Source: an uncultured Bacteriovoracaceae bacterium
Lineage (GTDB): Bacteria > Bdellovibrionota > Bacteriovoracia > Bacteriovoracales > Bacteriovoracaceae
DNA length: 64,000 bases
Assembly: GCA_964012805.1 (NCBI GenBank)
Contig: CAXGUD010000004.1
Span: forward strand, 86,900-150,899
Direction: 5' to 3'
Part shown: in pieces, positions 14,090 to 38,123 of the stretch
Layout: each line of letters opens with the position of its first letter
Position numbering within the stretch: the stretch's first letter is position 1
Program-made: the position numbers and the translations under genes
The notes under the pieces: generated by a model
What the model was told of the DNA's origin: nothing
The model's database searches: none
The model's input: the letters and a program-made list of their open reading frames with translations, nothing else

Positions 14090-15466
14090 ATGATTAAAAA
14101 ATTACTTTTTTCACTTCTTTACTTTTTGGTGGCCTTTAGTTTTAACTACCCCCACCAAAGTTTTGCTGAGGGAGACCGAAATAACGGTTTCCCTCAATAT
14201 TTTATTGAACCTTTTAAAGATCATTATTTTAAAAAAATAAAAGAAAAATTAGACCTAAACTTAAAAATAAAAATGGTTCCCACATCCTATCAATTTGGAG
14301 GAAAAATTTTTAAAAAGGAAAGGGATTTAAATCTTTTTATTTACTGGCCCATGGAAAAAAAAATAAAGGATCCACTAAATTTAGTCCGCTTAACCCTTTG
14401 TCATGAAATCGGGCATTACTTGGCCAAAGGACCTTATAAAGAGTCAATGGGACTTGTCACCGAAAGGGCGGTTGAAGGAGCTTCAGACTACTTTTCTACT
14501 CATGACTGCTTTTTTTCAAACTTTTCTTTTGTTTTAAAAAAACCAAAGTTTAAAAAACTTAAAGTGGGAGAGTGGGGAGAAGACTACTGCAAAGATCAGT
14601 ATTTTGAAAGTGAAAAAAGAAAGTGTGAAATACTTTATCCAATTGCTTTAGATTATCTTTTTAACCTTTTAAGATACCATTATTCGAAAGAAGATTTTTT
14701 AAAGGCAAAAAACTGGTCTCTTAAAAAAAGGAACTTTGTGGAAATCAATTTGGTGCCTGTTAAAAAGACCATTTCCTACCACCCTGAAGCTTTGTGCCGC
14801 TTAGAAACGATCATGAGGGGGGCCCTAAACAAAGAAAGACCAACTTGCTGGTTGGGAAAAGACTCTTTGTTTAAAATAAAGGATTCAAAAAGGTATGCCT
14901 CTTTTAAGCGTTATGCTTTAAAAAGGGACTACCAATCTTTAGAAAATTTAGTTCCAAACCTTAACTGTCATAAAGAAAAAAATGATACTGACCTTTTGGG
15001 GAACTCACCCTTGCATTTTGCCGCTTATTTAGATGACTTAAAATTAGTGAAAATGCTGGAAAGTAAAAACTCAATGTGCACACACTTTAATAATTTAAAT
15101 CATTTGGGCATATCACCGATTCATTTGGCCATTAAAAACCAATCGCTAAATGTTTTGAGTCACTTTTTAAATAAAAAAGAAAAATTAAACCTCTTTTTGC
15201 TTAATGGGCCTGACCCTCTTTACCTTTCGATTAAGTCCCGTAACGAAAAAGCGGCCTTAATGATTCTTTCTTATTATAAATTAATAAAAAAGACCAAGCC
15301 TTTAGTACTTCACCTGGAAGAAATGTTTATCGATTCATTCAATTGGAATATGCCTATTTTATCAAGAGAATTTATAAAACTTAGGCTAATTCAAAATAAA
15401 TGGGTTTTAAAAAGAGGGATTAACATTGCAAAAGAAATGGCAAATGAGATGAGCTTAGAAAATTAG
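14090..15466 (+). CDS. Secreted HExxH metallopeptidase-like protein with C-terminal ankyrin repeats
   Basis: CHEIGH...EGASDYF; GNSPLHFAA and GISPIHLAI ankyrin motifs; signal peptide from ATG 14090 (ORF track 14051). Confidence 0.72.
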   Translation: MIKKLLFSLLYFLVAFSFNYPHQSFAEGDRNNGFPQYFIEPFKDHYFKKIKEKLDLNLKIKMVPTSYQFGGKIFKKERDLNLFIYWPMEKKIKDPLNLVRLTLCHEIGHYLAKGPYKESMGLVTERAVEGASDYFSTHDCFFSNFSFVLKKPKFKKLKVGEWGEDYCKDQYFESEKRKCEILYPIALDYLFNLLRYHYSKEDFLKAKNWSLKKRNFVEINLVPVKKTISYHPEALCRLETIMRGALNKERPTCWLGKDSLFKIKDSKRYASFKRYALKRDYQSLENLVPNLNCHKEKNDTDLLGNSPLHFAAYLDDLKLVKMLESKNSMCTHFNNLNHLGISPIHLAIKNQSLNVLSHFLNKKEKLNLFLLNGPDPLYLSIKSRNEKAALMILSYYKLIKKTKPLVLHLEEMFIDSFNWNMPILSREFIKLRLIQNKWVLKRGINIAKEMANEMSLEN

Positions 15467-18400
15467 GAGGCCCTATCTTTAATATTTTCCTTCTTATAAG
15501 TTTTGATCTTTGAAAGGGCATCTTGGAGCATGTTGTTAATATCATGAATTTTAAATAGCCGAATTTCTTCACTTATTTTATCAAACCAAGGTGAAAGATA
15601 CTTTAATTTATTATTTTTTATTTTTTGTTGAAGCTTTAAGACCTTTTTTTCTAAAAAGTCTATATTTCCGTCTTCAAGACCTTCTTCAAAAACCTCTTCC
15701 ATATCAAAAAGAATAATCCCTTCTTTAAGCCCTAAGTTTTTATTAACTGTAAACTCGAAAGTGTCTGAATCGGGCTCGTCTTTTTTAACCACTTTCTTTA
15801 CTTCGTGTTTTAAAAATTTAGAAACTTCAAAAACAAACTCGTCTTTTTGAACGGGTTTTCTTAAAAAAGAGTCGAACTCTTCTTGGATTATGGGGTCAAT
15901 ATTTAAGGCCGATATAAGAATAACTGGTATCTTATTATTTTGACTCCTTAAAGCTTTCATGACCTCATCACCACTTAAAGTGGGCATTTTAAAGTCGGTT
16001 ACAATTAAATCTGGTTTAATTCTATTTACCTTATAAAGAAGTTCCTCTCCATCCCGGGCCGTCTCAATATTTAAGTCGTAATTGAAGAGGTAGGCCTTCA
16101 AAAGGGTCAAATTCATATGGACATCATCGGCAATTAAAATTGTTTGACCAAAAAAAGTAAAGGACTTTTCAGTGGCAGTGGTTTCTTCTTCAAAGCCTAG
16201 GGTAACATCTTTCAAGGTAACACTAAAATTGGTTCCTATTCCAAATTGTGAGCTGACAAGCAAATTTCCATTTAATTTTTCAACAATTTGTTTGGAAATA
16301 TAAAGCCCAAGACCGGTGCCTTTTTCAATAGTCCTTTCCGGGTCGTGAACTTGAGAAAAACTTTTAAAAAGGCTTCCTAACTTTTCCTTTTCTATCCCAA
16401 TGCCTGTATCTTCAATGTTGAAAATAAGGTCGATTGTTTTCTTATCTGTTCCAAAAAAGTAGCTTTTAACATCTACTTTTATAGTCCCTTTTTCAGTAAA
16501 CTTTAAAGCGTTTCCTATAAGGTTGTCTAAAACCTGTTTGAGCTTTTGTTTATCAATAGTAATCCACTCAGGCACTTCTTCATCCCACTCTAAGGTAAAC
16601 TCTATTCCTTTTGTGAGGCTTTGGTTGGTGTAAAAGATAGATAAGTCTTTTAAGAATTCATAAAGGTTAATATTAGTGTTTTCCACCTTTAATTGATTTA
16701 AGTCAATTTTAGTAAAATCCATGACGGAATCAATGAGGCTTAAAAGAGAATCTCCACTGGATTTAATGCACTGAATGAAGTCCTGCTCTTTATTTAAATT
16801 TTTTCTTTTAAGTTCACTTTTTAAAATTTCTGAGAAGCCAAGGATTGAATTAAGAGGAGTTCTTAGTTCATGGCTTAGCTTAGCAAAAAAAAGTGAACGG
16901 TCTTCTTGAATATTCTCAAGCAATTCATTACTATCTTTTAGTTCGGCTTCTCTTTTTTTTAGCGACTCATTGGACTCTTTTAATTCTTTGGTTCTTTCTT
17001 CAACCATTCTAATTAAATTATCTCTATACTCAGACAATTCTTTATTGGCATTTTTAAGGGCATCTAAAGTCTCAAGCTGGTCTTTATAGGACTGTTCATA
17101 ACTCATAGTTGCAGCACTTAAAGATGTTTTAGCAAGAGATAACTGCTTTTTAAGTTCGTTAATGATATCGTCTTTTTGAGTGTAGTGAAATTTACTTTCT
17201 TGAACATTGGTTTTTTGCATGGTTTGAATTTTGTCAGTTCTTTCTTCTTTCAAATTTCCCATTAAGCCAGCAATAAATTGACTTACCTCATGTAGCTTGG
17301 GAGGTTTAACTAATTTGATGTATGGAGTGTCTTGCCCCGTACCGCCTTCAAAAGAGGCTCTATGCGCTTCAGGAACCTCTTCAAGCGTATTTCCCATAAA
17401 AAAACCATTTTCTTTAAGAATAAAGGTTAGATTTTTGAAAAAACTTTGTTTTTTATTTTCTTTTAAATAATTTAATTTATTAAATAAAATAACAATATCA
17501 GCGTTTAAAAGAAAAGGACCTTCTACAAAGCAACCTTTTGAGTAAACGATATTATTTCTATATTCGTCTTTAAAATAATCCTTACCATTTCTTTGCCTAG
17601 TTAAATCGTCTTTTATAATATAACTTTTATATTCTTCAAAAAATGAGGACTTTATGCTTCGAAACATTAAGTCTTTATAATGATCTTCAGAGGCTTCTTT
17701 AGCAAAAATCTTAAAATTTAAATCTAATTTTTTATCTTTAATATAATTTTCAATAATATAACTAAGTATCATGCACTCATAACCATTACCAGAGCACAAA
17801 ACTTCAATTTTTAGTTCCTTTTGACCTCGTTTTACTATTTCAGGCAAAATGTTATTTATTAGGGAATCTTTTATTAAAGGGAAATTTTCTTTTGAAAAAG
17901 GTTTGTGAAGTCTCAGAGAATTATAGAAGGCTTCGACTTCAAGAGAATTTTCTTCTAAAGAATAGAGGTATTTAGTAAAGTCTCTCTTTCCATGAATAAG
18001 AGGAACTCTATCTAACAAAGACTCATTGATCATGCTATATTTAAAATGATCCAGGACAAGGTCATTTTGTTTAAACATTAATTTGATAATTTCTCTTACT
18101 AAAGCATATCGATGATTATAAAAAGTTAAAATGTTTTCAGGGTTTAAAAAGAAAAGATTTAAAAAATCAATTGTTTCTTTTAACTCTATTTCGAGATGAA
18201 ATTTTTTATTTTTATAGAGAATGTGATTTTTTCTATCTTTAATGTTTGCTTCTTTAGTAATAAGGATTAGAGAATTTTCATCAAATAAATCGCTTGTGAC
18301 CACCGTGAAGAAGTCGGAGTCTAAATCCATATTAATGACACAAGCGTTTCTATATCGACTTCTTATTTTGACTATGTCACTAATAGGGTCATTTTTATGT

Positions 18401-18555
18401 AGGAAATTTATTTTTTTTATTTCATCCGAATTGAAAAATTTAATGTCATTATTTTTTAGTGAGGTTTTTTTAATGTGAGAAATCAAGTCTTCTGCTAACC
18501 CTAAAGAGTCAGAACTAGAAAGAATCAAAATAAGATTTTTGTCTTTTTTTTCCAT
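15463..18555 (-). CDS. Hybrid histidine kinase (HisKA-HATPase-REC) with degenerate CheB/CheR-like N-terminus
   Basis: LSHELRTPL, NLIGNALKF, DTGIG, GTGLGL, receiver IADD...TDFKMP...KP; N-terminus resembles an eroded CheB-CheR fusion. Confidence 0.87.
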   Translation of the reverse strand: MEKKDKNLILILSSSDSLGLAEDLISHIKKTSLKNNDIKFFNSDEIKKINFLHKNDPISDIVKIRSRYRNACVINMDLDSDFFTVVTSDLFDENSLILITKEANIKDRKNHILYKNKKFHLEIELKETIDFLNLFFLNPENILTFYNHRYALVREIIKLMFKQNDLVLDHFKYSMINESLLDRVPLIHGKRDFTKYLYSLEENSLEVEAFYNSLRLHKPFSKENFPLIKDSLINNILPEIVKRGQKELKIEVLCSGNGYECMILSYIIENYIKDKKLDLNFKIFAKEASEDHYKDLMFRSIKSSFFEEYKSYIIKDDLTRQRNGKDYFKDEYRNNIVYSKGCFVEGPFLLNADIVILFNKLNYLKENKKQSFFKNLTFILKENGFFMGNTLEEVPEAHRASFEGGTGQDTPYIKLVKPPKLHEVSQFIAGLMGNLKEERTDKIQTMQKTNVQESKFHYTQKDDIINELKKQLSLAKTSLSAATMSYEQSYKDQLETLDALKNANKELSEYRDNLIRMVEERTKELKESNESLKKREAELKDSNELLENIQEDRSLFFAKLSHELRTPLNSILGFSEILKSELKRKNLNKEQDFIQCIKSSGDSLLSLIDSVMDFTKIDLNQLKVENTNINLYEFLKDLSIFYTNQSLTKGIEFTLEWDEEVPEWITIDKQKLKQVLDNLIGNALKFTEKGTIKVDVKSYFFGTDKKTIDLIFNIEDTGIGIEKEKLGSLFKSFSQVHDPERTIEKGTGLGLYISKQIVEKLNGNLLVSSQFGIGTNFSVTLKDVTLGFEEETTATEKSFTFFGQTILIADDVHMNLTLLKAYLFNYDLNIETARDGEELLYKVNRIKPDLIVTDFKMPTLSGDEVMKALRSQNNKIPVILISALNIDPIIQEEFDSFLRKPVQKDEFVFEVSKFLKHEVKKVVKKDEPDSDTFEFTVNKNLGLKEGIILFDMEEVFEEGLEDGNIDFLEKKVLKLQQKIKNNKLKYLSPWFDKISEEIRLFKIHDINNMLQDALSKIKTYKKENIKDRAS

Positions 18556-21500
18556 TATGCTTTAAGACTTATTTTAAAAGTCGTTCCCTTTCCTTCTTCT
18601 GTTTCTAAGTTTATTTCGGCATTAATTTTTTCTACGTTCTTTTTAACCACATCCATTCCGATCCCTCGTCCTGAAATCTCCGTAACATTTTCCTTGGTAC
18701 TAAAATTGGGTAAAAAGACAATGTTGAGTTTTTCTTCATCGGACATAAGCTTTATATCTGTTTCAGTATAAAACTCTTGTTCGATGGCCTTTTTAATAAT
18801 TGTTTCTTTAAGGATTCCCCTCCCATCGTCTCTAATTTCTAAAACGAATTGGTACTTCTCATTCCTATAGCACTTGATTTCTATATTGCCATACTCATCT
18901 TTATTTAATAATTTTCTTTCATCAGGCTTTTCAAGACCGTGGTCTACTGAATTTCTAACCAGATGAACGATAGCATCTTTCAATAAATTTAAAGATTCTT
19001 TACTAATGGCCCCTTGCTCTCCCTTTATTGAAAAATTGATTTTTTTGCCTAAGCTTTTTCCCATTTCCATGGCCATAACTTTTAGATTCTTTAAGGAAAA
19101 TTTAACTGGAACCCTTTTTAATTCCTCAAATAAAAGGTCTACATCCTTTTTAGAAAATGCCTTTTTATTTTCAAGGTCTTTTATGACCTTGTCTTTTAAA
19201 TGATTAAAGTTGTGAACCATAACTTCATAGGTTTCAGGCTTAGTGTTTTTATCTACCGATTCATCTCCATCGGGCTCCTGCTCTTTAATAAAATCTCTTA
19301 AAAACCTTAATAAATCGATGCTTTCTAAATAGGGGAACCACCCTTCATCGATTCCTTCCATAATCGTAATAAGGTTTTCAAGGGTCTTACTTTTAATCTT
19401 CTTTAAAATCATTATGCTTTGAATTGATTCACTCACAAAGTTATGTCTTAAGCTCGAATAGACATCACCTAAGAAAGAACTTACATCAGTTAAAGGCACA
19501 ATATCCTCAAAAATTAGGTGCTCTTTTGATTCATTTTCCAAAAAATTGATGTTTTCAATAAAGGTGTTAATAGAGACTTGTTCATAGATTAAAACATTAA
19601 AAATCCTAATTATAAGGGGTTCTTCGGAAAGGCTCAATTCGTCAGTCATAGCCTTAATAACTTGTTCCCATTCCTCTTTTTTATAAGGCTTGGAAAGCTT
19701 ATTTTTAAAGCTTTCTCTTTCTTTTTCTGGAACTGTTTTTTCGATATCAATTTGAATAAGAAATTTGAAGTGTTGCCATATCCTTTGAAAAGTTACCCTG
19801 ATTTTTTCTTTGTTAATAGAGTCTTCTTTAATAAAAAGTTCATAAACGGACCTTAAAAGAGTCGGGATATAAAGAAAATGATGGCCAATTGATTTATAAT
19901 TTAAAGAATAGAGAGCGTGGATAGCATCTTCCTTTTTTTCAGGACCTGATTCTTTAAAGAGTGAAACCAGGTTAAAAAAACCAACGAAAAAATTAACCCA
20001 AACTTCACTTTGATGATTGAAAGGTTTAAAGGCTGAGGAGCCAATATACATATCCTTCGCACTCTTTCTAATTTCAAATAATGGTTTTTTAAATGAATTA
20101 TCTATTTCATCTTTTGTTAAGGAATCACCAAGCAATAAAGTATGAATTGTCGTTTCAAAGAGGTGTATGTTTTCAGATAAACCTCTTTCGTTCATAGAGC
20201 GTGCAATTCCTTTTAAAGAGTGGAGGTTACCTCGTATCGAGTCAAATATTCTTACTCTTGTTTCATCGTCCAGGTTAAAAATATTGATTAAAAAAGAGAG
20301 CTGACTGCTTAGAAGAGAACTTGCTCCCTTTCCATTAAAGTAAGGTTGTCCAAACCAATACTCAAAATCTTTATAGATTTCATGAAACTCATTTTTAAAC
20401 TTGGAGTCATCTTCCGATTCAACTCCAAAAATATCCCTTGCCAGTTTAAAGTATTCATTAATTTGCCCTCGGAGCTCATAAAGGGAGGTCATCAAGAGGT
20501 TCATTTCGTCCATTCCTCTTCCAGCAAGGTTATTTTGTTTTAACTGAATGGCCATGGACTCAATTTCATGGGTTTTTTGACCAATGGCAGTAAAGCCGTA
20601 AATTCTTGAGTTTCCTTTGATTGTGTGAAGGTTCCTTAAGAAGTTATTCAGTTCATTTTTTATAGCCTCTTCGCCCTTTTGATATTGGGCCCTTATAACT
20701 TTCCAAAGGGAGACCGCCTCGTTAGAAAGGTAATTAGCGTTGTCAAAGAAAGTTTGAATTTCATCTTTTTTATTCGTCGCCAATTCTTGAAGGATTTTTC
20801 CTCTCTTTGATATCTCTTCTTGTTGGGCTTGCATTTTCTTTTCTAGAACTTGAATTTCTGTAATGTCTTCTACAATGAGCATAACACTTACAATAAGACC
20901 CTCATCATTATAAAGAGGACTATAAGCGACTTTTAAGATTTTTTCCTTTTCAATAAAATCTGATTTTAGATTAATTTTTGTGGGAAAGTGGTCCTTAACC
21001 ATTTCCCATTGAAGGTCATCTGCTCCAAATAAAATTCCAAAAGAAAACTTAATTGTCGAATACAATTCAGAGCTCTTATCAATATTAAAATAGAGGTTTT
21101 TAAAAATATCTTCTTCGACAATTTCATGGCCAAAAATAGTTGAGGAGTACTTAGAAACTGGTTTTTGAACAATACAGTCTTTTGAAATCGTAAAGACGGC
21201 TTGCCTCATATTATCTAAAAGGTTTGAAATATCATTTAATGCCATGGAGAGATCAATTGTCCTTCTTTTAACTTTGTCTTCCAAATTTAAGTTCGCATCT
21301 TCGAGTAGTTCATTGGCCTTAACATTTTCTTCTAAAAGGGTGTTAATAATGTCAGCTAGCCCCAAAGAGAGAAGGACGACTTCAATGACCCCACCAATTT
21401 GATAGCCATTTGCAAAAATAAACCAGGAAGGGAGATAGCCAGCAATTTGTCCAATTTGGAAGATTGCTCCGCCAAATAAAAAGATAAAGGCCATGAGGTA

Positions 21501-22511
21501 AAATTTGGCAGGCCTGTAATTTTCCCTAATTTTTATAATTCCCGAAACAAAGCAAAGGCCAAAGGAAAGTGCCATGAAAAGATAGGCTAAAGGCAGAAAC
21601 GTCTTGTAAAAAGGAAAAGTAGAAAGCCCAATGAAGACAAAGCACGTTATATTAATTCCCCGCCAAATCTTTTTTAAGAGAGGGTTCTTTTTTCCAATAT
21701 TTAAATAACTTGTTGTAAAAAGAGAAAGTGTAAACCCTGTCATCATTCCTCTTAAGATAAATCCTTCATTTTGAAACCAAATCCAGTCAGGGTATAAAAA
21801 TTGATAAGCAAGGCCATTAGTTGCCATATTTAGGAGAGTTGAAGTACCAATAAAACAGATATAATAAAAATAACTTATGCTTTTCGTACTTATAAAAATA
21901 AATAAATTATACAAAATCATAATAATCATAATGCCGTAAAAAATACCAAAGCCCGCCATTTTAAAGTTTTCAACCTCAGTAAAGGCCGTAGGGGAGTAGA
22001 GTTTAAGAGGTACCTGAACTCCATCATTTGATTTTATTTTAAAATAATAAGTCTTATTTTTTTGATTTAGGTTAATTCTAAAGACAAAATTTCTATTTTT
22101 AACTTCCCTTGTTGAAAAGACCTCTCGGTCCCCAGTTTTGATTGCTGACCATTTGCCATCAACAAATCTGTAAAACTCCAAATAATCGCACCAAACTTGT
22201 TCAAAAGATAAAAACCAGGAGCTTGATTGATGAGTTAGCTTATTGATTTTGACTTTCACCCAAAAAGTTGAATTCGTTATACCATAACTTGGTACATCTT
22301 TTTTACTTCTCTTAAATTTGGGGTTGTATTCTTCTTTTGAGACATCATCTATTGTTAGCTTACCTAAAGGGTCCTCTAAGATTGATACTTGACGACCAAT
22401 CTTATAGATTTCTTTTCCTTGTAATAGATCAACACCAACATCAGCATATAACTGGGAGGCATCCAATATGACAATTAAGTTAATAATTAAAATAATAAAT
22501 ACTCTCAGCAT
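18555..22511 (-). CDS. 7TM-DISM sensor fused to PAS-like, two HPt-like and CheA-type HATPase domains (no CheW domain)
   Basis: ILEDPLG/TGDR DISMED2, 7 TM, LHTIKG and LHSLKG, HLVRNSVDHGLE, DDGRG, SGRGIGMD; TAATG coupling to downstream gene. Confidence 0.88.
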   Translation of the reverse strand: MLRVFIILIINLIVILDASQLYADVGVDLLQGKEIYKIGRQVSILEDPLGKLTIDDVSKEEYNPKFKRSKKDVPSYGITNSTFWVKVKINKLTHQSSSWFLSFEQVWCDYLEFYRFVDGKWSAIKTGDREVFSTREVKNRNFVFRINLNQKNKTYYFKIKSNDGVQVPLKLYSPTAFTEVENFKMAGFGIFYGIMIIMILYNLFIFISTKSISYFYYICFIGTSTLLNMATNGLAYQFLYPDWIWFQNEGFILRGMMTGFTLSLFTTSYLNIGKKNPLLKKIWRGINITCFVFIGLSTFPFYKTFLPLAYLFMALSFGLCFVSGIIKIRENYRPAKFYLMAFIFLFGGAIFQIGQIAGYLPSWFIFANGYQIGGVIEVVLLSLGLADIINTLLEENVKANELLEDANLNLEDKVKRRTIDLSMALNDISNLLDNMRQAVFTISKDCIVQKPVSKYSSTIFGHEIVEEDIFKNLYFNIDKSSELYSTIKFSFGILFGADDLQWEMVKDHFPTKINLKSDFIEKEKILKVAYSPLYNDEGLIVSVMLIVEDITEIQVLEKKMQAQQEEISKRGKILQELATNKKDEIQTFFDNANYLSNEAVSLWKVIRAQYQKGEEAIKNELNNFLRNLHTIKGNSRIYGFTAIGQKTHEIESMAIQLKQNNLAGRGMDEMNLLMTSLYELRGQINEYFKLARDIFGVESEDDSKFKNEFHEIYKDFEYWFGQPYFNGKGASSLLSSQLSFLINIFNLDDETRVRIFDSIRGNLHSLKGIARSMNERGLSENIHLFETTIHTLLLGDSLTKDEIDNSFKKPLFEIRKSAKDMYIGSSAFKPFNHQSEVWVNFFVGFFNLVSLFKESGPEKKEDAIHALYSLNYKSIGHHFLYIPTLLRSVYELFIKEDSINKEKIRVTFQRIWQHFKFLIQIDIEKTVPEKERESFKNKLSKPYKKEEWEQVIKAMTDELSLSEEPLIIRIFNVLIYEQVSINTFIENINFLENESKEHLIFEDIVPLTDVSSFLGDVYSSLRHNFVSESIQSIMILKKIKSKTLENLITIMEGIDEGWFPYLESIDLLRFLRDFIKEQEPDGDESVDKNTKPETYEVMVHNFNHLKDKVIKDLENKKAFSKKDVDLLFEELKRVPVKFSLKNLKVMAMEMGKSLGKKINFSIKGEQGAISKESLNLLKDAIVHLVRNSVDHGLEKPDERKLLNKDEYGNIEIKCYRNEKYQFVLEIRDDGRGILKETIIKKAIEQEFYTETDIKLMSDEEKLNIVFLPNFSTKENVTEISGRGIGMDVVKKNVEKINAEINLETEEGKGTTFKISLKA

Positions 22512-22570: not shown

Positions 22571-22724
22571 CTATTATTTTTCTGTTTAGCGGGTTTAGTG
22601 GATTTAATGGTTATTTGTTTAATTGAGAGGTGAAAAAAAAATAATTTAAATAAATTACAGTTAATTAAGTTAAAGCTAGGAAATTTTAGGAAAGATTATT
22701 TTTATTTCTGAGGTTTTTAAAAAT

Positions 22725-25700
22725 TTAGGAAGCTTCTTTATAAGGAACTTTAATAATAAAGACGGTCCCCTCATCTTTTTTGCTTTGAATTTCAATGGTT
22801 CCATTTAAATTATCGACCTCTTCTTTTAATGATTCCATTCCTATGCCGCGACCAGAAATTAAATTGACTGTGTCTTTTGTAGAAAATTCAGGTCTGAAAA
22901 TATAAGAGAATAACTCCTGGTTTGAGACTTTACTTAAGTCTCTTTCTTGTAATAAGCTCTTTTCAACACATTTTCTTTTTATTTTATCTAAATCCAGGCC
23001 TGCGCCATCATCTGTAAAGGTCATTTTTATCATGTCATTTTCTATCTTGAAGTTTGTTTTTATGGTTCCCTCTTTAGGTTTCTTCTTATTTATTCTTACT
23101 GTTTCATCTTCAATACCATGGTCAATCATATTTCTAAAAAGGTGAATAGACGAATTTAAAAAGCTTTTTAACTTTATTTTATTTATTTTTATACTTTCAC
23201 CTTCAATTTCAAAATTTATGAGTTTTCCTTTATTCATTGAAGCTTCTTCAGTATACTTTTTATACTTTATAAAGTTTGACTTTAAGTCCGATAATACGTA
23301 GTTTGAATAAATCTGTTCTTTAATGTCATCGACTCCATTACTTGAAGTGAATAATTTTAGAATATCCTGGGTTGGAATCGATTTATTTTCTTCAAGAGCA
23401 TGCCTTTTGCAGGATTCTATTAAAATAAAGTTATTCTCAGCAAAATTATTTAATTCATCTTTAAATTTATTTATTTCTGTTATTAACTTTTCTTTGTTTT
23501 TTTCAAAAATAGCGCTTTCTAAGCTATGAATAACATTGATTAGATCATGAATTTTGAAAAAGCTCATCCTGGCCTTTAAAGTATGGATGAACCTAAAAAA
23601 AGTATCTTTTGATTCTAAATTATCCTGATAGTTCTTTTCTAATTCCTGAGAATCCAGAATAATTTCTATAAAGTCTGTTGGATACTCCAGGGCCTTTTTT
23701 ACAAGCTTACTATTTTCAACTTCCTTTTTAATGTCTTCTTCCAAGGCCTTTTCTTTTGTCCTGTCTTTTCCTACGAGGACCATTTTTATAAGTTTATTCT
23801 TTTCTTCAATTGAATAGATAGGCGCGAAGGTTAACTCAATATATTGATCTTTATTTTTTTTGAAATTTTTTGGTGCCAAAGGGGCCAGGTCTTTAAAGGA
23901 TATTTTTCCTTCCCACACCCTTTTTAGCCAACTCTTAAAGGTTTCTAAATTATCGCCTTCTAATTCAAGAATATCCCAAATATAATGTTTTTCGTTCGGA
24001 CTAAGGAGGTCACTTTTGAAAATTAACTTCCCAAAAATGTCTTCTGAAATTTTTGACCCTACATCGGAGATCACCCCATCCTCATCAAAGAGAAGTAGTG
24101 CTTCTGGAATGGTGTTAAGAATTTCTCTTTGATTTTTTTGTTGATGATAAATTTCATCCATTAAATATTCCATTTCCATTTTAGAAACGAGAAGATGATG
24201 AGAGCGCTCAGAAAGTTTTTTTTCGTTTTCTTTAAGTCTGGTTAAATTTCTTACAAGGCTAACAAGCTCTACCTCATTAAAGGGTTTTCCTAAAAAGGCA
24301 TCTGCTCCAGATTTGACCCCAGTTGTTCTACTTTCCTCGTCACTTTTAGCGGTTAAAAGAATAATAGGCGTCGTTTTACTTTTTTGATCCGACCTAATAC
24401 TTTTTATGAAATCAATTCCACTTGTTTCACCCATCATCCAATCTACAATTACTAGGTCAGGTTTTATTTTACGGACCTTTTTTAGGCCTTCTTCAGGATT
24501 TTTAGCTAAGGAGACTTTATAGCCATGAGGCATAAGAATATTCTTTAGAAGAGACCTCATATCTTTTATATCGTCTATAATCAATATATTCAGCCCACTT
24601 CCTATATCAGTTTTTAAATCCTCTTTTGTTAATTCGAAAGATTCCTCTGTTTCTTCCTCTCCACTATCATCACTCTTTCCCTTGTATTCAAATATCCAGT
24701 TTTTTAAAGCATAGGATTCAGTAGAGATGATCTTAGAAGATTGTATATAGTCCTCTATAACCTTAATAATAGGGTTAAACTCAAAAGAAATGAAGTAACG
24801 GTCTATGTAGGGTACATCCATTATGTCTTTCTTACGTCTTTTGAGAACATCAGGATTTATTACGGCAACTTTTTTTGTAAGAGATGAAATAAGGTGAGAG
24901 AATTTTAATAAATGAATCCCTTCATATTCAAAGTGGGTTAAATCAATCATGATGCACTTATACTTATTTCCTTTTAATCTTTTTCTGGCCTCTGTTATTG
25001 TTTGGACAAAGTCTATTTTCCTTTTTGCCTTGCCCTTTTGAGTTTGATTCAAGAATCCCTCATATTCACTTAGATAAATATCTTTCAGTGAAACGATTAA
25101 AAGATCTCTTAACTCATAATCAAATAAAATTGGACGGTCCTTTATTAAGCTTTCAGCGACTTTTTTCTTCATTATCAACTTTAACTCGTTATCTATTTTA
25201 TCTTCCTTTTCAAGCGATAAAAAGTAAGAGTCTGGAATCGAATCTGTTATATTTTCCCATAACTCAAGGTTTTCCTGCGAGTCTTCCAATCTTGGGTCTA
25301 TTAGAATAATTTTTGGATAAAATAAATTTGAAAAGTTTTTGAGATCTTTTAGTGTATGAATTTTTTCCCAGGTAAAGTCTTTCAAAAATAATTTTCTGTA
25401 GTCTGAAGTATCCTCTTTTTTAGGTATAATAAGGACAAAATCTATAATATTTCTAGGGTTAAAAGAAGGAAAATCAACCCAGAAGTAGGATCCATTCTTT
25501 CCATCACTTTCAATACCCACTGAGCCCTTCATACTTTCTGCTAGTTCTTTGACAAGTGAGAGACCAAGGCCCGTACCTTCCTTTCCATTATTTGAGTCGA
25601 CCTGTACAAAGGATTGAAAAATTTTGCTTTGATCCTTTTTGGGGATTCCTGGGCCTTGGTCTTTGACTCCAATTCTTAAATTATGTTCATGCTTAGTTAT

Positions 25701-26783
25701 AGAGAGCGTGATGGTTCCATTTCTCGGAGAGTATTTAAAAGCATTGGCCAGTAAGTTAAAGAGAATTTTTTCCAAAGAGTCCAGGTTGATCTCAATATAA
25801 AATCTGTAATCTTCTATCGTGATCCTATCGAAATTTTCCTCACCTATTAGGAAATTGAATTTTAGCTTACTAGATTCACAGGTAGGGCCAAAGGTTTTTG
25901 ATACATTTTCACAAAATTTTATAAGATTTATTGGATTTAGTTTAATTTTATCCTTATTTACTACGGCTTTTTGAAAATTTAGTAACTGGTTGACAAGGTG
26001 ATGGAGCCTCGTTGAGTTCTTTAAAGCAACCTTTAACTCCTTATCCAATGGGTATCTTTTAGAACACTCGTTCAAAGGGTTTTCAATCAGAGTTATTGGT
26101 GTTCTCAACTCATGAGACAAACTTTGAAAAAAGTTTGTCTTTTGTTCATCTAGGTCTTTTAATTTCTTATTTTGGTCTTTAAAGTGGCTAGTTAAATCCC
26201 AGAACTTTTCCAGATATTGATTAAGGTTACTGTTTTTCTTTTCCAAATCCTTACTTTGATCTTCGAGGGTATCGACTTTTTCTTTTACAAGACTATTTAT
26301 TAATGAAAAAAGAAAAATAAAAAATGGCATCATTATTAGGTATGAATCTTTTTTAAAGGATAAGGTACCTGTTGTAAGATGGATACCAAGGCACGTAATG
26401 AGTAGGTAACTTACTCCACTTACGAGAGTTGGAGTAAATCCATACATTCTTAAAAGTGAAATAGAGTAAAGCGAAAGTGATAAAAATAATAAGGGCCCAA
26501 TAATATAGTCACTAAACTGGAGTGCTAGTGTAATAGTTAAAACTCCATGGATGTGGGGCCAAAATTGATAGGAAGAACCTTTTATTTTTTTATGGAAAAA
26601 GTACTGAAAAGTAAGAAGTGGTATGGGAAAACCGAATATTAAAAGTTTTGAATGAGGAACGCTAAGACCATTAAAGTAAAGAATGCTAAAAAAAAAAAGG
26701 AGGGACCATGCAAATGTCCAATAAACAAGTTGAGATTTTTCATCTTGATTAATAAATAAAAAAGTTCCTTTTTTCTTTTCCAT
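22725..26783 (-). CDS. Dual histidine kinase: TM sensor, class I HisKA-HATPase, receiver(s), PAS-like, HPt and CheA-type HATPase
   Basis: LSHELRTP, NLLANAFKY, DQGPG, GTGLGL; intact receiver IIDD...VDWMM...KP; IHTLKA; HLFRNMIDHGIE, DDGAG, SGRGIGM. Confidence 0.88.
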   Translation of the reverse strand: MEKKKGTFLFINQDEKSQLVYWTFAWSLLFFFSILYFNGLSVPHSKLLIFGFPIPLLTFQYFFHKKIKGSSYQFWPHIHGVLTITLALQFSDYIIGPLLFLSLSLYSISLLRMYGFTPTLVSGVSYLLITCLGIHLTTGTLSFKKDSYLIMMPFFIFLFSLINSLVKEKVDTLEDQSKDLEKKNSNLNQYLEKFWDLTSHFKDQNKKLKDLDEQKTNFFQSLSHELRTPITLIENPLNECSKRYPLDKELKVALKNSTRLHHLVNQLLNFQKAVVNKDKIKLNPINLIKFCENVSKTFGPTCESSKLKFNFLIGEENFDRITIEDYRFYIEINLDSLEKILFNLLANAFKYSPRNGTITLSITKHEHNLRIGVKDQGPGIPKKDQSKIFQSFVQVDSNNGKEGTGLGLSLVKELAESMKGSVGIESDGKNGSYFWVDFPSFNPRNIIDFVLIIPKKEDTSDYRKLFLKDFTWEKIHTLKDLKNFSNLFYPKIILIDPRLEDSQENLELWENITDSIPDSYFLSLEKEDKIDNELKLIMKKKVAESLIKDRPILFDYELRDLLIVSLKDIYLSEYEGFLNQTQKGKAKRKIDFVQTITEARKRLKGNKYKCIMIDLTHFEYEGIHLLKFSHLISSLTKKVAVINPDVLKRRKKDIMDVPYIDRYFISFEFNPIIKVIEDYIQSSKIISTESYALKNWIFEYKGKSDDSGEEETEESFELTKEDLKTDIGSGLNILIIDDIKDMRSLLKNILMPHGYKVSLAKNPEEGLKKVRKIKPDLVIVDWMMGETSGIDFIKSIRSDQKSKTTPIILLTAKSDEESRTTGVKSGADAFLGKPFNEVELVSLVRNLTRLKENEKKLSERSHHLLVSKMEMEYLMDEIYHQQKNQREILNTIPEALLLFDEDGVISDVGSKISEDIFGKLIFKSDLLSPNEKHYIWDILELEGDNLETFKSWLKRVWEGKISFKDLAPLAPKNFKKNKDQYIELTFAPIYSIEEKNKLIKMVLVGKDRTKEKALEEDIKKEVENSKLVKKALEYPTDFIEIILDSQELEKNYQDNLESKDTFFRFIHTLKARMSFFKIHDLINVIHSLESAIFEKNKEKLITEINKFKDELNNFAENNFILIESCKRHALEENKSIPTQDILKLFTSSNGVDDIKEQIYSNYVLSDLKSNFIKYKKYTEEASMNKGKLINFEIEGESIKINKIKLKSFLNSSIHLFRNMIDHGIEDETVRINKKKPKEGTIKTNFKIENDMIKMTFTDDGAGLDLDKIKRKCVEKSLLQERDLSKVSNQELFSYIFRPEFSTKDTVNLISGRGIGMESLKEEVDNLNGTIEIQSKKDEGTVFIIKVPYKEAS

Positions 26784-30662: not shown

Positions 30663-31700
30663 TTATTGGACCTTTCTTTTTAATTTAACAAATTCATAAG
30701 AGGCATTAGCTTTTTGTTTCATATAATAAAGGGAGCCGTCTGGGGTAAAGCTTGGGTAATAACAATTTGATTTTTTACATTCACTCACCCAATTGAAATA
30801 ACCTGTTTCGAGGTTATAAGTCATAATATCAATCTGATTACTCAAATCTTGAGTTTTGACAACATAGGCGACATCTTTTGGGTTCACGGGAGAAACGTGA
30901 AAGGCCATAAGTTTATCGTCGTAGGAGAAATCGACTTTGCCAGTGGGCATTTGAAGGTCTTTAAAAAGGTGGCATTTAAACTTATCATCCATTGTATAAA
31001 TCTTCATATGTCTTGATTTAGGGTCTACGGCCGCAAAATATTTTCCACTTTTTGAGAGCATAGGAAGTGATACTTCAATATTGGGACAAAACTTTTTTGC
31101 CCTTCTGTAAAGCGTTCGCATTTTTTTTGGAGACTGGTCATGGTTTAGCAAAATTTCATAATCCTGAAGGAAGACATTCTTTTTATTTAAAAAACTTTCA
31201 GTAACCATCCTGAGGATTATTTTGTCTTCGTTTTTTTCAATAATGGCCATTGTTTGATAGGCGCCTGGGAGAGTACGGTCCTTAAAAAAGGGTCTTTTTT
31301 TACCTTTAAGGAGGTCATTTGTTCTATAAAACTCCATAGAGCCAAATTCCGGTATAAAACCGTATCTAGGAGCAACCCTTATATTGGGAACAAGCTTGGG
31401 AATAGTCACGAGGCCTTTAAAGGGGGTAGGAATTGCATCGACCCAGTGAGGAATGTTAATTTCCCTTCCTGTCTCCATGTTAAGAAGATAATTCCTTGTT
31501 CCAGAGGTATAGGAAATGAAGGGAGAATCAGGAACTGGTCTAAAAAAGTATTTTGGATCTTTTTTCGGTGCCATGGTCATTTCAACCGACCATTCCTTAG
31601 GGTTGGAATAGGCCATATCGTAGGATCCGATAAAGAGAGAAAAAAAGATTAGGAAAAAGTGAAATGACTTTAGTTTTTTAACAAGTTTAGGTGTGTTCAT
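30663..31700 (-). CDS. Secreted hypothetical protein, probable beta-propeller (TolB-like C-terminus)
   Basis: LPMLSKSGKY, KVDFSYDDKLMAFH, YPSFTPDGSLYY blade-like repeats. Confidence 0.6.
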   Translation of the reverse strand: MNTPKLVKKLKSFHFFLIFFSLFIGSYDMAYSNPKEWSVEMTMAPKKDPKYFFRPVPDSPFISYTSGTRNYLLNMETGREINIPHWVDAIPTPFKGLVTIPKLVPNIRVAPRYGFIPEFGSMEFYRTNDLLKGKKRPFFKDRTLPGAYQTMAIIEKNEDKIILRMVTESFLNKKNVFLQDYEILLNHDQSPKKMRTLYRRAKKFCPNIEVSLPMLSKSGKYFAAVDPKSRHMKIYTMDDKFKCHLFKDLQMPTGKVDFSYDDKLMAFHVSPVNPKDVAYVVKTQDLSNQIDIMTYNLETGYFNWVSECKKSNCYYPSFTPDGSLYYMKQKANASYEFVKLKRKVQ

Positions 31701-31714
31701 TTAAAAGCTTCCTT

Positions 31715-32572
31715 TTATTTTGAAGCCGCTTTCTCTAAGGCTTCGTGAATAGCTTCTTCACCTTTAGCACCAAAGAGTTGTACATGAGAAATTTTTCCTT
31801 CTTTGTAGAAGAAATAATTAGGAAAATGGAGGGATGCACCTTGAAGGTGGAGACGCTCTGCCTTATTTCTTCTCGTTAGCTTTGAGGGTAAGGAAAACTG
31901 CTTTGTAACTTTTTTTATCTCTTTATCATTTGCAAGAGGGTCCATCAAAATAGTCAAAGGAAGCTTTAACTTTTTGGCAACATTTTGAAGAGGATATAGA
32001 GAGCCTACAGAATAAGGCATATGAGGACTCCATAAATAAATAATCCCTTTCTTGGACTCTTTAAGAAGCATTTTGAGATCATCGTCCGTAAAGTCACTCG
32101 TTTTGGTCTTAAACCCAGTTAATTTGTAATGGGAGTTTTCTCTAGTCTTTTTTTCTTTGCGTAAAAGCGTAACGTGACACTTTTTTGGTGAGGACGGATT
32201 AAGTTTATAAAATTCGATTTGTTTCAATGTTTTTAAAGATAGGTAGAGAGTTTTTTGAGGCACAGACTTTTTTTCAATGCTTAGTTGGGCCCCTCCTTTT
32301 CCAGAGAGGATCGTTTGATAAATGAAGCGTACATTCCCCTTAGAACCTTTACCCGGTCTAAGGGTCCATTTCAGTTCGGATACTTTTGATTTAATTGATA
32401 AGGCATCCAAACAGATTTGAGGAATGGGGCTTTTTTTATTTTCTGGGCGTGGAGGCGCTAGATTTGTGGATGAAAAACCACTCTTTGCAGTAGAGACCAA
32501 AAAAAAGACCGCGACGAGGTGAATGATATGACTAAGGGTGAGTTTAAAAAAAGATTTTTTCATGCAGTGCAA
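31715..32572 (-). CDS. Secreted hypothetical protein with thioredoxin-like C-terminal domain lacking CxxC
   Basis: IYLWSPHMPYS at the WCxxC position; HFPNYFFYKEGKI cis-Pro-like motif. Confidence 0.55.
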   Translation of the reverse strand: MHCMKKSFFKLTLSHIIHLVAVFFLVSTAKSGFSSTNLAPPRPENKKSPIPQICLDALSIKSKVSELKWTLRPGKGSKGNVRFIYQTILSGKGGAQLSIEKKSVPQKTLYLSLKTLKQIEFYKLNPSSPKKCHVTLLRKEKKTRENSHYKLTGFKTKTSDFTDDDLKMLLKESKKGIIYLWSPHMPYSVGSLYPLQNVAKKLKLPLTILMDPLANDKEIKKVTKQFSLPSKLTRRNKAERLHLQGASLHFPNYFFYKEGKISHVQLFGAKGEEAIHEALEKAASK

Positions 32573-35969: not shown

Positions 35970-38123
35970 ATGAGTTTAAAAGAAGGAAGGCCTTTTTTAA
36001 AAAGCGTTGAAGAAAGCGAGAAAGATGGTCGTGGGAAACCTAAAGACCATATGGCGTTTATTAGGTATTATCTAATAATAGGTGCTTGGATAATATTTTA
36101 TTTTTCGGCTTTTTTGTTTTCTTCATTTCTGGAAATGAAATCAAGAACAATAAACGAGCCTCTTTTCCTTTTTTGTCCTTTGATTCTTATCCTTTTGGAA
36201 CTTTCCCTAAAAATTTTTAAGGGAAAAATATCATCTATTCCTTATTTTAAAAAGGTATCAGATTTAAAATTTACAATATTTTTATTACTACACATATTCC
36301 TGGCACTTTACTTTTCTTTAAAGGAAAACCCTGAAATAGATGGCTTTTTGGGAATACTGGTGCTTTCCTCTTCTTATCTTTTTATTCTAGGAAGGTTTGG
36401 CCTTGCAAAAAGCCTTTTATTATCTTTGAGTTATTTAATTTCCTTTATGTTTTTGAAGTTTAAAATGTCACCTGAGTTTGGACTTGATGATAAAATTTTT
36501 ATTTTTTTCTATATATTCTTCTCAACTTCTTTTTCACTTTTAAATTCTTTCCTTAAGCGATCAAAGGACAAAGAAAAGGAGACCCAGGAGAAAATGAAAT
36601 CATTTAATGAAAGACTCGAAAAATCAGTTAAGGAAAAAACTTACAAGATGAGTGTTTTAAATCAAAGTTTGATTGGAATGATGGTCGATGTAAATGAAGA
36701 GAAATTATCTAGAGAAAGGCTCCTTGAAAATTTGGCGGAAGGCTATATGGTTTTCAATAAAGAAAGGGTTATTGAAGAAGGTGCAACAGCTGCTTCGAAG
36801 AGGCATTTTAAAATGAAAACCGAGGGAAGAAAAATTGAGGATGTTTTAAGACTTAAGGACCATGCTCGGGAAAACTTTTTAAAATGGTGTGAGAATGTAT
36901 GGAAGGGAAGTATCAACTTTAAAGACCTTCTGCCTTTGGCCCCAAAGACGTATCTTGGAGAAGAAGAAAAGTATATAAAGCTCGATTTTAGGCCTATTTA
37001 TAAAGAAGACAATAAAGAAATAGAAAAAATTATTTGCATAGCTTCTGATATAACAAATGAAAAAAGGCTTGAAGAAAAGGCAAGTAGAGAGAAATTAGAA
37101 GTTCAAATGTTTTTGAAAATACTCGAGCAACCCGGATATTTTTTGAATTTAATAGAAGATGCAAAAGACTCTTTCGACTTGATGAAGAAATCGGATGTTA
37201 TGGATGTGGATTTAATTTTTAGAAACATTCATAATTTAAAGGCCAATTTCTCAAGATTTCACGTAATGACTGTAACTCAACAACTTCATAAGCTGGAAGA
37301 AATTCTTGATAAGTATAGATCAGAAAGCTTTTTTAAAACTGAAGTTCCTGATGATCTGAATAAATCTTTTATAGATGCTGAAAGTCATCTTTTAAACTTT
37401 CTTAAATCAGAGAAAACGGTATTGGATATGGCAAGAAGGGACGCAAAGAGCTCCGAAAGCGATGAGACAGTCTTTTTGCCAAGCCTTGCTAGTTTCATTT
37501 CTGAAAGGTTTGGGGAGGAGTCAAATTTTTATATTGCTTTTAAGGAAGAATATTTAATGGGTAATTTATCAGATAAACTTAAAAACTTTATGCATATGGT
37601 GATAGACCTTTCTCAATCTCAGGGTAAGCAGATAATTTTTGCCATTGAAGATGCTTCTTTTAAAGTCAACCTGTTAAAGTATAAAGGTGTTATAAATGCT
37701 TGCACTCATATCCTAAGAAATGCTGTCGACCACGGTATTGAAACTCCGGAAGAAAGGGAAGAAAAGGAAAAAACCAAGCAAGGCATGATTAAGGCTTCTT
37801 TCAAGGAAACAGGGCTTGATATGTTTCAGCTTATTATTGAAGATGATGGAAAAGGAATTGACCCATCAGTAATAAGAAACATTGTTGGACAAAAAAATAT
37901 AATAAGTAAAGAGCTTATAAAGAAATTGAATGATAAAGAAATTATCCAATTTATTTTTGAACCAGGTTTATCATCGAGAAAAGATGCCTCTAATATATCT
38001 GGACGTGGGGTCGGTGCAGATATTGTTAAAATTGAAGCTGAGAAAATAGGTGGAGAGGTTAGGGTTATTAGTAAATTTGGTAAGGGAACAGCCTTTATTT
38101 TAACTTTGCCTCTTTTTAAATAA
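35970..38123 (+). CDS. Membrane-anchored PAS-like, HPt and CheA-type HATPase kinase (no CheW domain)
   Basis: 5-6 N-terminal TM helices; IHNLKA; HILRNAVDHGIE, DDGKG, SGRGVGAD; ends LPLFK. Confidence 0.87.
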   Translation: MSLKEGRPFLKSVEESEKDGRGKPKDHMAFIRYYLIIGAWIIFYFSAFLFSSFLEMKSRTINEPLFLFCPLILILLELSLKIFKGKISSIPYFKKVSDLKFTIFLLLHIFLALYFSLKENPEIDGFLGILVLSSSYLFILGRFGLAKSLLLSLSYLISFMFLKFKMSPEFGLDDKIFIFFYIFFSTSFSLLNSFLKRSKDKEKETQEKMKSFNERLEKSVKEKTYKMSVLNQSLIGMMVDVNEEKLSRERLLENLAEGYMVFNKERVIEEGATAASKRHFKMKTEGRKIEDVLRLKDHARENFLKWCENVWKGSINFKDLLPLAPKTYLGEEEKYIKLDFRPIYKEDNKEIEKIICIASDITNEKRLEEKASREKLEVQMFLKILEQPGYFLNLIEDAKDSFDLMKKSDVMDVDLIFRNIHNLKANFSRFHVMTVTQQLHKLEEILDKYRSESFFKTEVPDDLNKSFIDAESHLLNFLKSEKTVLDMARRDAKSSESDETVFLPSLASFISERFGEESNFYIAFKEEYLMGNLSDKLKNFMHMVIDLSQSQGKQIIFAIEDASFKVNLLKYKGVINACTHILRNAVDHGIETPEEREEKEKTKQGMIKASFKETGLDMFQLIIEDDGKGIDPSVIRNIVGQKNIISKELIKKLNDKEIIQFIFEPGLSSRKDASNISGRGVGADIVKIEAEKIGGEVRVISKFGKGTAFILTLPLFK

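Follow-up and report, generated by a model that had tools for sequence, protein, structure and literature searches.

A class I hybrid kinase and a CheW-less CheA-type kinase joined in one polypeptide of a Bacteriovoracaceae bacterium

Introduction

How do two histidine kinases of different classes work within a single polypeptide? This question is raised by a reverse-strand gene at positions 22725-26783 of the window, the 64,000-nucleotide stretch of DNA from an uncultured Bacteriovoracaceae bacterium (genome G000) that was analysed here. The gene encodes a 1352-aa dual histidine kinase, labelled P0001, in which a class I hybrid kinase is followed by a CheA-type kinase. CheA-type kinases are defined as receptor-array enzymes under CheW control. 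An earlier note on this DNA had proposed that either kinase 1 phosphorylates the receiver and gates kinase 2, or two routes converge on one histidine phosphotransfer (HPt) domain; comparative evidence favours the first option over the second. P0001 is a real, conserved and recurrent protein, built from known parts, that likely works like LvrA of Leptospira with the second kinase swapped for a CheW-less CheA-type core. A two-kinase chain joined by a receiver is known from LvrA; for a CheA-type second kinase, no published description was found in the literature searched.

Results

Domain architecture of P0001

P0001 is encoded by one open reading frame (ORF) without internal stop, as the earlier note had stated, and the Pfam domains lie in one chain. 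From the N- to the C-terminus, the order is a transmembrane (TM) region, a class I kinase, two degenerate receivers, an intact receiver, a long predicted helix, a PAS-like domain, an HPt domain and an ATPase of the CheA P4 fold. This order and the intact catalytic motifs were observed directly, and the features are as follows.

22725..26783 (-): whole gene P0001, dual histidine kinase (ORF and orthologues)
26280..26732 (-): membrane region, residues 18-168, four predicted TM helices without a large outer loop (hydropathy)
25959..26279 (-): coiled coil and HisKA/DHp, residues 169-275 (Pfam PF00512, E 1.4e-08, and motif)
25458..25784 (-): ATPase 1, class I HATPase_c, residues 334-442 (N, G1 and G2 boxes intact)
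25140..25448 (-): pseudo-receiver 1, residues 446-548, truncated fold (model and identities)
24738..25115 (-): pseudo-receiver 2, residues 557-682 (alignments and model)
24597..24737 (-): acidic low-confidence linker, residues 683-729 (alignment and model)
24240..24596 (-): intact receiver, residues 730-848 (Pfam PF00072, E 1.9e-28)
24132..24239 (-): signalling helix, receiver helix 5 extended into the PAS-like domain, residues 849-884 (model)
23748..24131 (-): PAS-like domain, residues 885-1012 (secondary structure; Atlas lead)
23433..23681 (-): HPt four-helix bundle, residues 1035-1117 (model and family profile)
23292..23432 (-): short helical linker, residues 1118-1164, where CheA has its dimerisation domain (model)
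22734..23291 (-): ATPase 2, CheA P4 type, residues 1165-1350 (profile and fold match)

Four hydrophobic stretches within residues 19-166 passed the Kyte-Doolittle cut-off, and the membrane region matched no Pfam family; the Atlas neighbours of the same region in the orthologue P0002 were unnamed or MASE-type membrane sensors, which we regard as a lead only. Pfam placed HisKA at residues 213-271, Response_reg at 732-843 and two HATPase_c stretches on the chain. The SHELRTP H-box carries His224 (26112-26114), ATPase 1 has its N-box at N343/N347, its G1 box at D375/G377 and its G2 box at G403/G405, and the intact receiver retains the acidic pocket (D737, D738), D781 (24441-24443), T811 and K833. 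The front half has the sequence features of a class I hybrid kinase, namely the H-box His, the N, G1 and G2 boxes and a full receiver, and the TM region, HisKA and HATPase named in the earlier note were all recovered by hydropathy, Pfam and motif positions.

In an AlphaFold2 model of residues 200-880 (pLDDT 76, 15 sequences), two receiver-like folds followed ATPase 1, the first without the fourth helix and the fifth strand, and the best Foldseek match of this front half was ShkA (PDB 6qrj, E 1.3e-23). Pseudo-receiver 1 carries D496 in the string IILID. Pseudo-receiver 2, which aligned in register with intact receivers of paralogues, keeps D614 (CIMID; Asn in the orthologue P0003) and is without the acidic pocket, the Thr and the Lys. 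Model folds, motif losses and the PF00072 match bore out the two degenerate receiver-like stretches and the intact receiver described before. The linker at residues 683-729 contains a Trp motif common to cyclase-ending relatives. Pseudo-receiver 1 showed 92-95% identity with close orthologues, in which it is better conserved than both ATPases, and 66% with P0003; this high conservation suggests a binding role. A second IHTLK string at residues 475-479 was rejected as an HPt motif, since it sits in pseudo-receiver 1 and is lost in P0003.

The rear half was modelled over residues 725-1352 (AlphaFold2, mean pLDDT 84, 40 sequences). The model comprised the receiver, one unbroken 55-residue helix (the coiled coil of the earlier note), a strand and helix order like that of PAS, a four-helix bundle and the ATPase. 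The ATPase 2 model matched CheA P4 (VIA Z 23.9, root-mean-square deviation 1.7 over 174 residues) better than the best class I kinase (Z 17.1), and the rear-module family profile found CheA P4 at E 2e-59, so that the CheA-type assignment stood. Its motif residues are N1218, D1221, D1259 and G1311/G1313/G1315. The bundle contains the IHTLKAR motif with His1067 (23583-23585), Lys1070 and Glu1089. In CheA P1, this Glu serves ATP-dependent phosphorylation. The same family profile matched the CheA P1 structures 2ld6 and 1tqg at E about 2e-05, which upheld the HPt label; no Pfam match to HPt was obtained in P0001, and Pfam detected the domain in 24 of the 40 members of the family alignment at E values up to 0.5. 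The PAS-like label is the weakest assignment. It has in its favour the secondary-structure order and Atlas neighbours at 0.88-0.89 (a lead only), while Pfam matches were few (PAS_4 in 2/40 members). The profile also reached the end of P3 in 4xiv/1b3q; short helices occupy the P3 position, and H-kinase_dim was absent from the 25 Pfam families listed for 40 family members, a model described as insensitive in PMC10782961. The chain stops two residues past ATPase 2, and hence there is no CheW domain. A dimer prediction for residues 856-1350 scored 0.04 (mark 0.42) and was not used as evidence.

Authenticity and conservation of the gene

The earlier note had allowed that the chain might be an assembly chimera or have one inactive ATPase. 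The motifs gave no sign of the latter. A chimera of two adjacent kinase genes could be imagined in an assembly of 130 contigs with many similar kinase genes, the more so as the contigs from four sequencing runs not marked as source cover most of the gene by tiling and none spans it whole. It is refuted by divergent full-length orthologues among independent public proteins (P0002, 82% identity; P0003, 48%). It is further opposed by a syntenic orthologue of 84% identity in the same-genus genome G001, which covers residues 1-1182 up to the end of its contig and has the same aldo-keto reductase gene ahead of it, and by a contig of run X11 that bridges the receiver, the helix and the PAS-like domain (23590-24365) with 22 differences. 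Two paralogues built on a similar plan also speak against it, and we consider the chance of a chimera negligible. Two joints in run contigs (22652-26306 and 23482-26310) were set aside as foreign matches, their short side being only 20-21 letters.

In the cytoplasmic parts, comparison with the G001 orthologue gave 0.00-0.12 non-synonymous and 0.37-0.85 synonymous changes per site, with zero amino-acid changes in the helix between the two halves; by this comparison the gene is under purifying selection. The named members of the 90% cluster of P0001 are labelled Bdellovibrionota bacterium. Another genome (G002:C104) carries a rear-half orthologue with receiver, PAS, HPt and ATPase, interrupted at the contig start; it was not counted as a dual kinase, and the approximately unbiased test did not significantly exclude it from the P0001 clade (p-AU 0.064).

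The front cassette and the rear module occur apart

The front cassette consists of HisKA, ATPase, optional receivers, the Trp linker and a receiver. It ends in an adenylate/guanylate cyclase in two paralogues of the same genome (C1:100311 and C63:2706). Of the 150 representatives that matched best out of 1.84 billion, 65 ended in a cyclase, 52 in a second class I kinase and 4 in a CheA-type kinase. Since a cyclase has no His for a relay, the cassette is used there as a switch. The closest relatives of the P0001 receiver within the genome sit in kinase-1 cassettes of cyclase-ending proteins, from which it follows that the receiver came along with kinase 1. In four further loci (L004:4878-8699, L029:1374-5192, L030:2849-6574 and L031:3270-7190), the same front cassette and a PAS-like domain are followed by an unrecognised helical tail that replaces HPt and ATPase 2, and kinase 1 itself is decayed in L004 and L029.

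The rear module, defined as PAS-like domain, HPt and C-terminal CheA-type ATPase without CheW, was counted with profiles built from genome G000 itself (4.47 Mb) and was found in 68 ORFs. The His-x-x-Lys motif is present in 64 of these and at least two predicted TM helices lie in front in 63, while the HPt Glu at His+22 occurs in 56 of the 59 scored copies. In the other copies, the input likewise reaches the module by a coiled coil that joins at the same PAS start. Two subtypes were distinguished, HTLKAR and HTxKGN, and members of the second often have two HPt-like motifs. Furthermore, two proteins of the genome (C33:23381 and C6:56108) have receiver, PAS, HPt and ATPase without kinase 1, which indicates that the receiver acts as an input of the module.

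One protein of the genome has the CheA layout (C58), with a C-terminal CheW-like tail, an N-terminal receiver and a CheW-like ORF beside its gene. Motif and profile searches of G000 for chemoreceptors and CheW returned none and the query only, respectively, and were too weak, as they missed that CheW-like ORF. The genome also contains 87 single-domain receivers. Such a receiver is found within 300 bp for 14 of the 68 module genes and for 24 of the 600 other long ORFs used as a comparison (Fisher p 5e-06, the genes not being independent). When genome contigs were scanned with a CheA-like pattern, the matches listed were mostly ordinary CheA loci; among those with a name, a Halobacteriovoraceae assembly gave the best locus for the rear module.

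Recurrence of the dual order and a tandem pair with complementary defects

The dual set comprised 35 sequences, near-duplicates included, among 513 fetched proteins and 4 translated loci. P0319, one of the four CheA-ending representatives, led to a second group of the same order with 23 Bacillota-type sequences, three of which are named (Cohnella sp. CFH 77786, Cohnella panacarvi and a Bacillota bacterium). On quick trees without a mixture model, a single clade was rejected for kinase 1 (48 rows with 18 duals, p-AU 3e-31), for ATPase 2 (38 rows with 17 duals, p-AU 6e-04) and for the rear modules when the P0001 group was taken together with the C32 pair described below (35 rows, p-AU 4e-04), the last group being defined by architecture but tested after a first tree had been viewed. 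Because these trees reject single clades, fusion or module exchange appears to have occurred more than once. The dual order is rare in the samples searched. Among 300 genomes sampled from the bacterium's own phylum (E 1e-95, with 2 candidates scored in each), no further full dual turned up, and none did among 401 genomes from the phylum to which G316 belongs or among 125 from the class that includes G315, where few candidates were scored. A metagenome scan with P0414 yielded 80 loci, and in no case were the two kinases combined.

Of the 35 duals, 30 keep the two His residues, the Asp and Lys of the receiver and, in each ATPase, the N and G2 boxes. The remaining five are members of a tandem pair of the C32 type, paralogues of like design encoded by adjacent genes in two genomes (L001:4832-12403 in G000:C32 and L028:1140-8717 in G001:C74). 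Gene a has Val at the H-box His and decayed N and G2 boxes in ATPase 2, with ATPase 1, receivers and HPt intact. In gene b, the lid of ATPase 1 is shortened, Asn takes the place of the last receiver Asp and Tyr that of the HPt His; the H-box His, an intact first receiver and an intact ATPase 2 are retained. P0238 represents a third copy of this gene. With the HPt His lost, ATPase 2 of gene b would therefore serve only the HPt of another chain. A heterodimer would thus restore one path, which would lead from ATPase 1 of gene a to the His of gene b, on to the Asp of gene a and, by way of ATPase 2 of gene b, to the HPt of gene a; the pair is predicted to be an obligate heterodimer.

A probable two-step cascade and its alternatives

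LvrB is a Rec-controlled kinase whose kinase activity is raised by phosphorylation (PMC5863495, PMC13269768). Its receiver gating has been followed in solved structures, a heptad length preference is reported for Rec-controlled kinases (PMC13269768), and the same receiver control was proposed for LvrA (PMC5863495). In a like manner, P0001 would act as a two-step cascade, in which kinase 1 phosphorylates D781 and thereby gates kinase 2 through a putatively heptad-phased helix, and kinase 2 then phosphorylates its own HPt; we regard this as probable, with moderate confidence. A signal at the TM region would set the autophosphorylation of His224, a step that the two pseudo-receivers probably tune or space, and the phosphoryl group would pass from His224 to Asp781. 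Receiver helix 5 and its coiled-coil extension would then change their pairing in the dimer, as solved for LvrB, and the change would be relayed through the PAS-like domain, where the TM sensors of other module copies enter. Subsequently, ATPase 2 would phosphorylate His1067 with a second ATP, probably across the dimer, and His1067 would hand the group to a separate response regulator, most likely a single-domain receiver of the genome and probably CheY-like.

We preferred the cascade because the front cassette mostly gates an enzyme that is unable to take a relay, because receiver-first rear modules stand alone, and because the last helix of the receiver joins the module where TM sensors do; the copies with TM sensors, whose own ATPase is the only kinase in the chain, were counted in its favour as well. 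The complementary dead sites of the tandem pair fit it, too, as do the catalytic residues retained in 30 of the 35 duals and the HPt Glu found in 56 of the 59 scored module copies. In the Bdellovibrionota-type forms, the distance from the receiver Lys to the PAS start was 41, 48 or 62 residues, all in one heptad phase.

Several observations weigh against the cascade. The in-phase set amounts to three distinct lengths among related proteins, the distance was off the heptad phase in 13 Bacillota-type sequences (45 residues) and in P0319 (51), the pattern failed to parse four rows, and forms into which another domain is inserted lay outside this comparison. The F-box of P0001 reads PEFST, with Gly in most module copies. 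Another residue replaces the second Gly in the G1 box of ATPase 2 in 16 of the 23 sequences of the Bacillota type, and kinase 2 may be weaker in those forms. As the duals were gathered by similarity to intact queries and include near-duplicates, intact motifs are favoured in the set. No response regulator gene adjoins that of P0001, and of the 24 kinases in the HTLKAR subtype, to which P0001 belongs, just one has a single-domain receiver within 300 bp, so that the output to a receiver is the weakest step. Moreover, the gene is split in one set of public records (P0394, covering residues 1-430, and P0393, from about 499, on a 3.7-kb contig), and the succession of kinase, receiver and HPt would also allow transfer from Asp781 to His1067.

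This succession is the relay order of the ArcB/BarA type, and it is the starting point of an alternative in which a relay from His224 through Asp781 to His1067 runs beside a separate ATPase 2 under control of the PAS-like domain, the shared HPt acting as an OR gate. The completeness of the relay residues in 30 of the 35 duals and the G1 changes just mentioned would suit this arrangement. However, the commonest ending of the cassette is a cyclase without HPt, and no dual with kinase 1, receiver and HPt was found to have lost the N or G2 box of ATPase 2. In addition, the model places a rigid 55-residue helix and the PAS-like domain between receiver and HPt, and three forms (P0371, P0397 and P0400) add a further domain there; we therefore judge two routes to one HPt unlikely.

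The flow might also be reversed, kinase 2 passing phosphate by way of His1067 to its own receiver as a sink or as feedback on kinase 1. Receivers are fused to about 35% of CheA proteins and were argued to be sinks (PMC10782961), and the true CheA of this genome has an N-terminal receiver. The P0001 receiver, on the other hand, came with kinase 1, its nearest relatives in the genome lying in cyclase-ending cassettes, and TM inputs precede 63 of the 68 module copies, most of them without a receiver, which makes such a reversal rather improbable. Least probable among these functional accounts, and indeed very doubtful, is a tolerated fusion in which the halves are independent or kinase 2 is merely structural. 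Modules are freely reshuffled in the genome, the split form is on record, and a relative with decayed kinase 1 and no ATPase 2 exists (C6:24877), but non-synonymous change is low against near-saturated synonymous change, the joining helix is unchanged, and the same order appears to have arisen repeatedly.

Discussion

Comparison with known kinases

LvrA has the layout PAS-DHp-CA-REC-DHp-CA, a chain of kinase, receiver and kinase (PMC5863495). P0001 resembles it in having two kinases joined by a receiver, and resembles LvrA and LvrB in that receiver helix 5, in the model, is continued by a signalling helix. It differs in its kinase 2, an HPt with a CheA-P4 ATPase behind a PAS-like domain rather than DHp-CA, and in its TM-region input and two inserted pseudo-receivers. 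The best NCBIfam match of P0001 was the LvrA model NF047465, at 187 bits against a cut-off of 1200, so it is not a member of that family.

With CheA, P0001 shares the P4 fold, the N, G1 and G2 boxes and a P1-like HPt with His, Lys and Glu, whereas it has no CheW (P5) domain and no detected P3 or P2, is membrane-anchored and contains two HATPase domains. A survey of CheA found CheW in all of them and no duplication of the kinase domain, as reported in PMC10782961, and P0001 is not a CheA by that definition, because it has no CheW domain. In the front half, P0001 and ShkA of Caulobacter have in common DHp-CA followed by a pseudo-receiver and a receiver, and P0001 differs by its two pseudo-receivers, TM input and second kinase. 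ShkA binds c-di-GMP through a DDR motif; a motif of this kind, looked for by eye in the alignment, was not conserved. The CyaC type of cyanobacteria is a hybrid kinase joined to a receiver and an adenylate cyclase, and thus has the same front cassette, P0001 gating a kinase instead of a cyclase; no paper on the CyaC mechanism was found in the literature search. Unlike the ArcB/BarA type, the P0001 chain does not end in the HPt, which has the PAS-like domain before it and the ATPase after it.

Class III histidine kinases combine a sensor input, an HPt and a CheA-type ATPase without a CheW domain, and were reportedly treated by Wuichet and Zhulin in 2010 and by Adebali et al. in 2017. The rear half of P0001 and its 67 relatives fit this outline as judged from their sequences, the difference being that the input of P0001 is a whole class I hybrid kinase. 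Work on class III kinases is cited in PMC6501615.

Novelty and significance

No published description of a chain with a class I and a CheA-type kinase was found in literature that was mostly freely readable, and a prior listing among class III kinases is possible; the accessible parts of PMC8534201, PMC6944256 and PMC8396549 contained nothing bearing on it. The earlier view that a chain with two ATPases is unusual held for the combination of class I and CheA type, which was not found to be common and characterised, and did not hold for two ATPases around a receiver, which are common (the 52 of 150 representatives with a second class I kinase) and studied in LvrA. Neither the 68 genomic copies of the rear module nor the recurrence of the order in Bacillota figured in the earlier note.

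As a broader picture, which we advance tentatively and rate somewhat short of an even chance, a recurrent circuit would place a class I kinase-receiver switch in series with a receptor-free CheA-type kinase, so that two-component input is turned into CheA-type output at the cost of two ATP. This circuit would have arisen independently in Bdellovibrionota and Bacillota, one lineage splitting the four catalytic jobs over a half-dead tandem heterodimer in which every step passes between the chains, and all this amid 68 CheW-less kinases and one true CheA. If a receiver, once phosphorylated, gates such a kinase by way of a coiled coil and a PAS-like domain, this would be control of a CheA core without an array, and it would bear on the kinship of class I and class II kinases. 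The literature search found no biochemistry on the CheW-less CheA-type family. P0001 has a built-in switch (BeF3- or a D781 substitution) and would thereby offer a handle on the whole family. Relatives from named Cohnella species are on record, and the complementary pair predicts interchain steps.

Further observations on module relatives and the window

Other uses of the module were noted. A locus in G000 (L066:1219-13646, C3), inspected by eye, contains CheX-like ORFs together with a CheY-like gene and three CheA-type kinases, of which two carry a 229-aa tail. A CheX-like domain also stands at the C-terminus of the CheA-type kinases P0397 (PF13690) and L078:2858-6458, and in Syntrophomonas palmitatica the gene of a CheX-tailed CheA-type kinase overlaps a CheY-like gene. 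P0377, a CheW-less CheA-type kinase of 4858 aa, has about 29 HPt-like repeats by profile. In a reverse arrangement (L007:3437-6343, G000:C5), a class I hybrid kinase is preceded by the PAS-like domain and helices of the module, without the HPt His motif and without ATPase 2.

The window holds three more module copies, at 10237-12885, 18555-22511 and 35970-38123. Scans for promoters and terminators were at chance level (19 against 19.7 expected and 5 against 4.1, respectively). A gene at 15463-18555 (-) encodes a 1030-aa hybrid kinase in which a weak N-terminal CheR-like match (Pfam E 4e-07) is fused to HisKA, HATPase and receiver, and its start overlaps the stop of the CheA-type kinase gene upstream. 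The GC skew of the window turned from mostly negative to steadily positive around 28-31 kb (entry 31000-32000).

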